DNA of 64,000 nucleotides, from NCBI GenBank assembly GCA_965263295.1, contig OZ253665.1, forward strand, positions 128,001-192,000, in the 5' to 3' direction. The DNA comes from Spirochaetia bacterium. GTDB taxonomy: Bacteria; Spirochaetota; Spirochaetia; SP-2023. This document shows positions 4,929-5,943 of the stretch, piece after piece (the stretch's first letter is position 1; every line of letters starts with the position of its first letter). Under the pieces are notes generated by a model that was not told the origin of the DNA, did not search any database, and saw nothing but the letters and a program-made list of their open reading frames with translations. The position numbers and the translations under genes are program-made.

Positions 4929-5116
4929 ACCACGAAAGGGCACGAAGACGGCGAAAGGGCACGAAATTTAGACGGGGGGGGCCGGAAATTTTCCTTTGGG
5001 TGGCAGGGGGGGCAGAAAAAAGGGGCGATGGGAGGCGCGGGGGCGTCCAGGCAGCAGGCGCGGTGTTTTAGAATTTTTCGTGTTGTTCGTATTTTTTGGT
5101 GTTTTTCGTGGTTACT
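4929..5116. repeat. CACGAA/TTCGTG multi-unit inverted-repeat (hairpin) element, copy 1
   Basis: Left arm 4929-4971 ACCACGAAAGGGCACGAAGACGGCGAAAGGGCACGAAATTTAG; 93-nt G-rich spacer; right arm 5065-5116 ending TTCGTGGTTACT. Confidence 0.85.
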
Positions 5117-5143
5117 CGGCCAGGGACTGTTAGGGGGCCGTGA

Positions 5144-5740
5144 TCAGAAGCTGTGCACTTCCTCATTCACCACTTCAATGTGCTGGCCTCTTTGGGTCAA
5201 GAGAAAAATGCCCGCTTCCCGTGCCTCTGTAATCAGCTTATCGTAAGTCACCGTGGACGCTAGCCCCAGATAAAATTTGTAGTCCTTGTATTCGGTGAAA
5301 GTCTTACGAAAGCTCTGTGGCTCGTTTTTGAGCAGTTTAGCAATGTCGTTGGTGTGCGCCTTGTACTTCACCTCAATCAGGGCCACGGTATCGCCATTGT
5401 ACATCACGATGTCGTACTCGCCTTCGTCGCGATGTCTGCGGCGGTTGGGCACATTGCGCTCCACGCTGTCATAGCGCAGCCCACCGAGAAACGGGTTTGC
5501 GTAGAGACTGTTGAAAAACAGTTCCTCGGCAAAATCGCCGTTGCTGATGCCAATATTGCCTAATATCTTGGCCACTTTTTCCAGCCGCGCATCGGTTTTC
5601 GCTAGCTGTGCATCGGTTTTCGCTAGCTGCGCATCGGTCTTTTCCTGCGATCTGCGCAATTCGGCCAGCTGTTCATCGGTTTTAGCCTGAGAAATGCCGA
5701 TTTTTTTGAGGATTTCCCTCACTTCATCCAGGGTATCCAT
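5144..5740 (-). CDS. Coiled-coil plus PD-(D/E)XK nuclease-like protein (DUF3782-like)
   Basis: N-terminal KTDAQLA heptad repeats (21-bp DNA repeats at 5589, 5610, 5631). C-terminal E...EYDIV...LIEVK motif. GGAGG RBS upstream. Confidence 0.7.
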   Translation of the reverse strand: MDTLDEVREILKKIGISQAKTDEQLAELRRSQEKTDAQLAKTDAQLAKTDARLEKVAKILGNIGISNGDFAEELFFNSLYANPFLGGLRYDSVERNVPNRRRHRDEGEYDIVMYNGDTVALIEVKYKAHTNDIAKLLKNEPQSFRKTFTEYKDYKFYLGLASTVTYDKLITEAREAGIFLLTQRGQHIEVVNEEVHSF

Positions 5741-5758
5741 GTGTCCTCCAATGAGGCT

Positions 5759-5787
5759 ATTTTAGTCAGATCAATATCGTATGGCAA
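5759..5787 (-). promoter_or_regulatory. Sigma70-type promoter of the PD-(D/E)XK gene
   Basis: Minus strand TTGCCA (5787-5782), 17-nt spacer, TAAAAT (5764-5759), just upstream of the GGAGG RBS. Confidence 0.65.
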
Positions 5788-5818
5788 TGCGTCTTTTGCG
5801 GGGGGACTCTTAAAGGGA

Positions 5819-5943
5819 ACCACGAAAAGGCACGAAAGGTGGCGAAATGTCACGAAATTTAGGCAGGGGAGCTGTGGATGACAAGGAAGGCGTTTTAGAA
5901 TTTTTCGTGTTGTTCGTATTTTTTAGTGTTCTTCGTGGTTACT
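5819..5943. repeat. CACGAA/TTCGTG multi-unit inverted-repeat (hairpin) element, copy 2
   Basis: Left arm 5819-5862, 29-nt spacer, right arm 5892-5943. The right arm matches copy 1 at 50/52 nt and overlaps the rsmD 3' end. Confidence 0.85.

Follow-up and report, generated by a model that had tools for sequence, protein, structure and literature searches.

A predicted nuclease gene lying between two like-oriented copies of an inverted repeat raises the question of what the repeats are and which enzyme, if any, acts on them. We met this arrangement in a 64,000-nt stretch (hereafter the window, whose positions we use for this locus) of a spirochaete genome that consists of a single 2.41-Mb contig (G000:C1 in the coordinates below) and is 92.6% complete. 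A first-pass annotation had described a cassette-like unit at the junction of an RTX gene and rsmD: two co-oriented CACGAA/TTCGTG elements with conserved right arms and, between them, one complete expression unit. Each of these features was found as described. The interpretation built on them fared less evenly, as set out below.

The upstream flank is the 3’ part (6..4910, + strand) of a 3645-aa ORF identified by ORF calling and profile search, with RTX calcium-binding repeats in its C-terminal part (PF00353, 22.9 bits for a cut-off of 23), and its stop codon abuts the first element, E1. An extra, degenerate outer unit (4911..4924, +), of a kind frequently in tandem repeat across the element family, precedes the E1 left arm (4925..4970, +), which has four CGAA-core words at 9-10 nt spacing (CACGAA at 4931, 4941 and 4960; CGAA at 4952). 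The loop of about 94 nt (4971..5064, +) is a mosaic that includes G-rich modules common to other genomic copies, and the right arm (5065..5114, +) has four TTCGTG-like words (5077, 5086, 5096 and 5105) with T-rich linkers and GGTTA at its end. Comparison of copies identified the next segment (5115..5139, +) as the family “tail”, which in tandem arrays links a right arm with the left arm that follows; at this locus the tail instead meets the 3’ end of the nuclease gene, at the point where the following left arm would start. The nuclease gene (5144..5740, - strand) encodes 198 amino acids and is preceded by a GGAGG ribosome-binding site (5745..5749, -) and a sigma-70-like promoter, TTGCCA-17-TAAAAT (5759..5787, -), that is conserved in paralogous copies. 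The promoter, read from 5787 to 5759, has 10/12 matches and came from a scan that gave 2 sites where 0.8 were expected.

A second, partial tail copy (5802..5814, +) precedes E2, whose left arm (5815..5862, +) again carries four CGAA-core words (CACGAA at 5821, 5831 and 5851; CGAA at 5843) and whose loop of about 30 nt (5863..5891, +) belongs, as a short variant, to the loop family seen in E1. The E2 right arm (5892..5943, +; TTCGTG-like units at 5904, 5913, 5923 and 5932) is identical to that of E1 at 50 of 52 positions (5065-5116 compared with 5892-5943). It overlaps the final codons and stop of rsmD (5895..6512, -; PF03602, 120.8 bits), which by profile search and synteny lies downstream of pgi as in 3/3 congeners, and the element has therefore taken the place of the gene’s native 3’ end. 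An Rfam scan of 4700-6200 returned a single chance match (E 6.4). The RTX ORF also contains two repeated units (window 25-1231), one of 168 nt in 6.1 near-perfect copies and one of 57 nt in 3.2 copies, and one sequencing run (X4) has a variant allele of the ORF’s 3’ end.

Searching the genome and its relatives with the arms, as the annotation had recommended, showed that the element is not confined to this locus. The pattern CACGAA-N3-16-CACGAA matches 343 times in the genome and its reversed counterpart once, so the elements are not chance occurrences. A loose rule found 145 left-arm and 88 right-arm runs, and a stricter one found 70 element loci totalling 18.5 kb; 57 complete gene-less elements measure 107-279 nt (median 187). 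Behind the right arms comes a tail of 9-26 nt, and for 45 of 82 right arms this tail leads on to a further left arm, and dense tandem arrays lie at 1.900-1.904 Mb. The central spacers had been thought unrelated, but the complete elements have 48 distinct loops that draw on a common set of G-rich modules, mosaic-like and in a constant order, one module occurring in 36/57 and another in 40/57 elements, from which we infer frequent exchange between copies. The strand that reads from left arm to right arm (L-to-R) is on the inferred leading strand in 21/28 loci (p 0.013), with the origin guessed from GC skew. Separately, eight near-identical coiled-coil genes stand in tandem in L001:10691-17118 (G000:C1:1906690-1913117), each separated by an element, with a further copy near 1930000; they share a hydrophobic C-terminus and a varying number of short internal repeats, and profile search assigned them to no family over cut-off.

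G-T wobbles between the linkers had been held to favour folding of one strand only. In this genome the arms do show the predicted bias: 53 distinct arm pairs contain 258 G.T and 20 A.C, and in 57/57 complete elements the minimum free energy (MFE) is lower for the L-to-R strand, although these copies share an ancestor, so that the counts are not independent, and the bias does not go beyond shuffles. “One strand only” is too strong: when both strands were folded, the same core stems formed on each, with weak and similar shuffle z-scores for the two strands (-2.02/-2.02 for E2; -1.36/-0.92 for E1). Over 104 arm pairs from other genomes there is no strand bias (G.T 105, A.C 117).

The nuclease encoded between E1 and E2 was one candidate for an enzyme that acts on them. 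It combines a long N-terminal helix (residues 3-81) with 7-residue repeats and a PD-(D/E)XK domain in which E72, E108, D110, E123 and K125 are invariant (58/58). Its structural model (pLDDT 87.9) best matches the small subunit of R.BspD6I and NucS/EndoMS (E 2.5e-4 to 8.6e-4); with this predicted restriction-endonuclease-like fold and an E...D...ExK motif, it is a PD-(D/E)XK protein. It has no Pfam or NCBIfam match, only weak YraN/UPF0102-type ones, and does not reach the curated cut-off for GxxExxY (TIGR04256/PF13366). We found 697 homologues at E 1e-10 or better, with no informative name among 120 listed, and a search of the phylum gave matches in 4 of 150 other genomes.

“Cassette-like” remains an apt description of the window unit, since the four other near-full genomic copies of the nuclease gene and one fragment all touch an arm. 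What the copies have in common starts at the tail, takes in gene and promoter and stops at the next left arm, and arms on both sides are kept in only two of the five near-full copies. Among congener homologues, an arm is nearby in only 1 of 21 loci (a set drawn from 27 by dropping five short fragments and one contig-edge locus); the window nuclease is therefore probably not the cognate enzyme, and probably a passenger. One paralogue (G000:C1:1453586-1454203) has a frameshift near its start; a 5’ fragment (G000:C1:422288-422494) abuts the end of a right arm, the two meeting at a short sequence common to both; and L277:3040-3150 (G000:C1:1691040-1691150) holds a left arm and the promoter of the nuclease unit with no nuclease gene, an orphan promoter that may face another gene. 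In the congener G001, three homologues with growing internal repeats stand in tandem with no arms (G001:C2:64536-66644; L009/L012).

The first-pass annotation had also mentioned that similar repeats flank small nuclease-like genes such as GxxExxY, and here its suggestion of a nuclease-associated repeat system holds, with a different nuclease from the one it had in mind. The only GxxExxY match in the genome, 1.77 Mb from the window at G000:C1:1901344-1901727, lies inside an element loop in the order left arm, gene, right arm. Its 128-residue product scores 148.9 bits with TIGR04256 (cut-off 35) and 148 bits with PF13366 (cut-off 22), and its model (pLDDT 93.6) has as best solved match Cas4 SSO0001 (E 1.9e-4). 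Cas4 is a single-strand nuclease. Residues E33, D73 and K85 are invariant (45/45), and the frame in this genome keeps all invariant residues; its arm-coded N-terminus is decayed.

To place this gene we examined its closest relatives, keeping 80 of 303 loci confirmed across many phyla in a species-genome collection and choosing them by protein, not by arms. Two-word arms, with a core spacing of 9 nt, lie within 150 nt of 79 of these 80 loci, compared with 9 of 287 control windows, which supports that link. The same core flanks both sides in 70 of the 79 arm-flanked loci (shuffled mean 50.6). The commonest layout is that of the in-loop gene here, strictly so in 30/80, and the left arm often encodes the N-terminus; all arm-gene-arm orientations occur. 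Among 200 genomes of the phylum, at least five arm hits were found in 25 of 43 with a GxxExxY gene and in 6 of 157 without one, leaving 18/43 GxxExxY-positive genomes below five hits. Seven of the 43 have at least 50, so the expansion of the element is not unique to this genome. We conclude that the cognate enzyme is probably the single GxxExxY gene (PDDEXK_3, with a Cas4-like fold), and not the window nuclease.

Some further GxxExxY loci deserve mention in their own right. By eye, many in other phyla seem to sit in restriction-modification operons, and in two loci of G001 (L052 and L058) arm words run in frame within methyltransferase-like genes of restriction-modification loci. An other-clade GxxExxY gene in the congener G002 (L065; G002:C1:411577-411918) has a different and longer upstream repeat. 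One GxxExxY locus was found on viral contigs.

Comparison across the family distinguished what is fixed in the arms from what is free. The word period is 9 in 71/73 loci of the clade that holds the GxxExxY of this genome and 10 in 78/78 of a second clade (80 loci kept of 428 metagenome matches); the second clade and spirochaete loci carry other words, and in a mixed spirochaete set 11/32 loci have no word from our list. On a tree of 163 proteins the words change 23 times, compared with 88.2 when shuffled, and the residue in the first helix differs by word, being Q in 56/58 CACGAAA rows and R in 6/7 CACGGAA/CACTGAA rows, with Q in the protein of this genome; kin share labels, and both patterns may reflect common descent alone. 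These figures exclude 11 of 194 loci without a motif-search result and, before the tree, 20 of 183 that lacked a word or had identical proteins. Linkers between paired arms show weak complementarity in one word class (59/116 against a shuffled 42.5; 5 of 5000) and none in two others (53/133 against 52.8; 30/75 against 30.6). Conservation thus lies in words and period, with linkers free. With wobbles evenly directed outside this genome as well, this points to arrays of words bound by a protein more than to a hairpin read on one strand, although the substrate may yet be a folded one. Arms in this genome have drifted from the canonical form, with four units at 9-11 nt spacing and a G.T skew, and a strict three-word pattern matches only 3 times, so this genome’s GxxExxY protein may no longer read most copies.

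The elements also bear on gene duplication. Taking ORFs of 150 aa or more from a crude caller, we found a dispersed paralogue for 25 of 80 ORFs beside elements and for 18 of 1497 elsewhere, and lipobox-like starts in 19/80 and 122/1497, respectively. Of the 22 paralogue families, 9 place at least two members at elements, where the null gives a mean of 0.2 and a maximum of 3 in 5000; removing one antisense double count leaves 8/21. Families of 7, 7, 5 and 3 members lie wholly at elements, and one 3-member family not at all; the largest recently duplicated families, namely lipoproteins, the window nuclease and a coiled-coil gene, sit at elements. Dispersed repeated segments have 216 ends in all. 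No element lies at 157 of them, 30 have an element on a single copy, and 29 on both copies; in this last group homology comes to a stop at 22 ends and picks up again at 7. Random placement of segment ends gave a null mean of 1.9 for an observed 29/67, an excess inflated by masking and gene boundaries. Junctions beyond the right arm fall at several tail positions, not at one base, and some fall at arm ends, as in the nuclease fragment at G000 422290 and the copy at 898428. Among the passengers are lipoproteins, some with a PKD domain, and a YefM-YoeB pair; RecA is present in the genome. The repeats stand at the edges of the most duplicated genes here, many of them for surface lipoproteins, and this suggests a role as portable recombination sites. 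The YefM-YoeB pair (L275:429-931; G000:C1:457429-457931) lies between two left arms, and a PemK/MazF gene abuts an element at L002:8412-8738.

The annotation had proposed a search for an empty site with a single element at the RTX-rsmD locus. None was found in the three congeners, which are rearranged: pgi-rsmD is kept in 3/3 and accA follows in 2/3, with no arms there and synteny broken beyond. Across the congener loci and the contigs of four sequencing runs we found no empty-site allele, circle or target duplication; the assembled contigs break at arms, and joints that skip the gene are indistinguishable from other genomic copies. The same two observations, rearranged congeners lacking the element at rsmD and contigs that break at arms, are what the data offer on MITE or IS criteria. 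In the genome studied here accA (G000:C1:107895-109438) is 24 kb off and inverted, and it adjoins what looks, by eye, like an IS-like remnant.

The congener G003 has no GxxExxY match, and its arms are at control level. G002 has 26 arm hits beside tandem lipoprotein genes, and its matching GxxExxY is an 18-codon remnant; of 13 stretches, chosen by arms and including one duplicate, most show by eye lone arms that separate tandem lipoprotein genes (L043 and L045, from opposite ends of the contig, have identical sequences). Four G002 stretches (L043, L044, L047 and L062) also carry, between tandem lipoprotein genes, a 7-nt tandem repeat and a family of CCCCTCC...GGAGGGG palindromes.

Our observations, then, are an association of arms with GxxExxY genes across phyla, one intact GxxExxY gene, the only one of the matching clade, inside an element loop, an expansion to about 70 loci, mosaic loops, and duplicated genes with homology that ends at elements. 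E1 and E2 are very likely the ends of a small GxxExxY element, copied without the gene. Such ends would be inverted arrays of the 7-nt word CACGAAA at a fixed period, enclosing in their simplest form the GxxExxY gene. The GxxExxY protein may bind the word arrays as a multimer, as the fixed words and period and the free linkers would suggest, and may nick or cut at the outer end of an arm. RecA-dependent recombination between the 100-280-nt copies would then shuffle loops, amplify arrays and copy a gene lying between two co-oriented elements to another element, and the window nuclease gene with its promoter would be one such passenger. We hold this mechanism, GxxExxY cutting at word arrays followed by RecA recombination between copies, to be somewhat more likely than not. 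Against it count the failure to find an empty site, circle or target duplication, the spread of junctions along the tail, the drift of the arms, the many ends of duplicated segments that have no element, and the small share of near-full nuclease copies with an arm on either side. A bolder version, which we regard as rather doubtful, is an integrase-free cassette system in which the 128-residue Cas4-like protein reads word arrays through its first helix and cuts their ends, with the arrays domesticated as roughly 70 portable recombination sites through which accessory genes, those for surface lipoproteins among them, are captured, duplicated and reshuffled.

Other explanations draw on the same findings. 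GxxExxY might be a site-specific single-strand nuclease that reads the folded L-to-R strand and cuts beside it, and so tunes how incoming DNA is taken up or recombined near genes for surface proteins, with duplication at elements as a side effect. The kinship in fold with Cas4, the excess of lipobox-like ORFs beside elements, and the G.T excess and lower MFE of one strand in this genome would all agree with such an activity. So would the layout, which recalls NTS-ssnA-NTS and the expansion of those repeats near membrane-protein genes of host-associated bacteria, as reported in the relevant part of PMC11893778. The wobble bias, however, vanishes in arm pairs of other genomes, linkers are free, genes and arms occur in all orientations, and lone arms are common, both in the surplus of left-arm over right-arm runs and in G002, where most arms seen are lone; we consider this explanation unlikely. 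A nuclease may also be unneeded. Arms that came with a GxxExxY element could now be spreading by RecA recombination, gene conversion and slippage alone, with any remaining role at the RNA level, as an extended hairpin in a 3’ or intergenic region. In length and similarity the copies suffice for homologous recombination, by eye many left arms come after a stop codon or a terminator-like T-rich end, the arms have drifted from the canonical pattern, the arm-coded N-terminus of GxxExxY has decayed, and G002 retains its arm hits beside lipoprotein genes despite having only a remnant of the gene. Purely passive spread sits poorly with words that stay intact while linkers and loops vary in the 57 complete copies, with a GxxExxY frame that keeps its invariant residues, and with the several junctions at arm ends (422290 and 898428), and it strikes us as quite improbable.

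The idea closest to the first-pass annotation, that the elements are attC-like single-strand recombination sites or that the window nuclease moves its own cassette, appeals to the co-oriented elements that bound single genes, the tandem array and the YefM-YoeB pair, as in cassette arrays, to the arm touched by all five near-full nuclease copies, and to the AAC...GTT triplet of E2 (not E1); the variable loop and purine-rich stronger strand also resemble attC as portrayed in part of PMC5371416. It is very hard to reconcile with the lack of any IntI over cut-off, of full boxes in all 57 elements and of attC-like length (figures below), or with window-nuclease homologues that multiply in congeners without arms, three of them in tandem in G001, and we judge it highly improbable. 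On the bolder, cassette-system version, the GxxExxY family would be one of very small nucleases, each with its target word spelled out beside its own gene. The family is widespread and listed as of unknown function, and its likely substrates lie in the flanks of its genes, so its function should be directly testable. HUH (RAYT) and GIY-YIG (Ssn) enzymes are each paired with a dispersed repeat of their own; if the nuclease drives the duplication, its fold would be the third of this kind, and it would represent a new route to surface-gene diversification in spirochaetes.

Set beside known systems, the element is functionally like Ssn/NTS and RAYT/REPIN and looks like a cassette array, but it fails the tests of membership in all three. 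The features of REP, REPIN and BIME families that it shares are a single-copy enzyme gene, many gene-less inverted doublets and intergenic tandem mosaic arrays (partly after PMC3184786), and all of these were found in this genome. The arms here are word arrays, unlike REP sequences; a GTAG/GGAG tetranucleotide 5’ of the palindrome is present in 2/57 elements on one strand and 0/57 on the other; and there is no PF01797 (Y1, HUH transposase) match in the genome. For integrons, the best TIGR02249 match in this 92.6% complete genome reaches 71 bits with a cut-off of 265, and the attC or REP analogy of the annotation is not supported. The end boxes of attC sites are RYYYAAC and GTTRRRY, which occur on neither strand in any of the 57 elements; E2 has only the AAC/GTT triplet. 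A one-strand preference exists here by MFE and G.T count, not beyond shuffles, and is absent in the wider family. According to the portions of PMC5371416 that concern attC, likenesses are the conserved arms with a variable loop, the co-oriented placement between accessory genes, a toxin-antitoxin passenger and, by MFE in this genome, the greater stability of one strand; attC sites are 57-141 bp long, whereas the elements here are longer (107-279 nt, median 187), and attC is read by structure, whereas the words here are conserved in sequence. Unlike those of attC cassettes, the passengers here have promoters of their own and occur in both orientations.

The Ssn (GIY-YIG) nucleases with their NTS/SRM repeats (Chenal et al. 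2025, PMC11893778) offer the nearest parallel in the parts of that account that bear on it: a gene for a small, single-domain nuclease with a repeat of its own on its flanks, pairs of nuclease and cognate repeat that vary across phyla, and a repeat expanded to many copies clustered at surface-protein genes. Relative to what is described there, the enzyme here is a PD-(D/E)XK protein (PF13366) of predicted activity and not GIY-YIG, the repeat is a periodic array of 7-nt words and not a 20-50 nt hairpin, and the gene can lie within the loop; the only GIY-YIG match in the genome falls within a 687-aa frame, and the arm-flanked gene is PF13366. By score over curated cut-offs, GxxExxY motif and D...ExK catalytic residues, the in-loop gene belongs to the PDDEXK_3/GxxExxY family (PF13366, TIGR04256), which the passage on it in PMC3424549 lists as function unknown with multiple transfers, giving neither a function nor flanking repeats. 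A literature search confined mainly to openly accessible main texts found no description of the pairing of GxxExxY gene and arms. To this family the present genome adds the expanded state, with mosaic loops and elements at the edges of its most duplicated genes.
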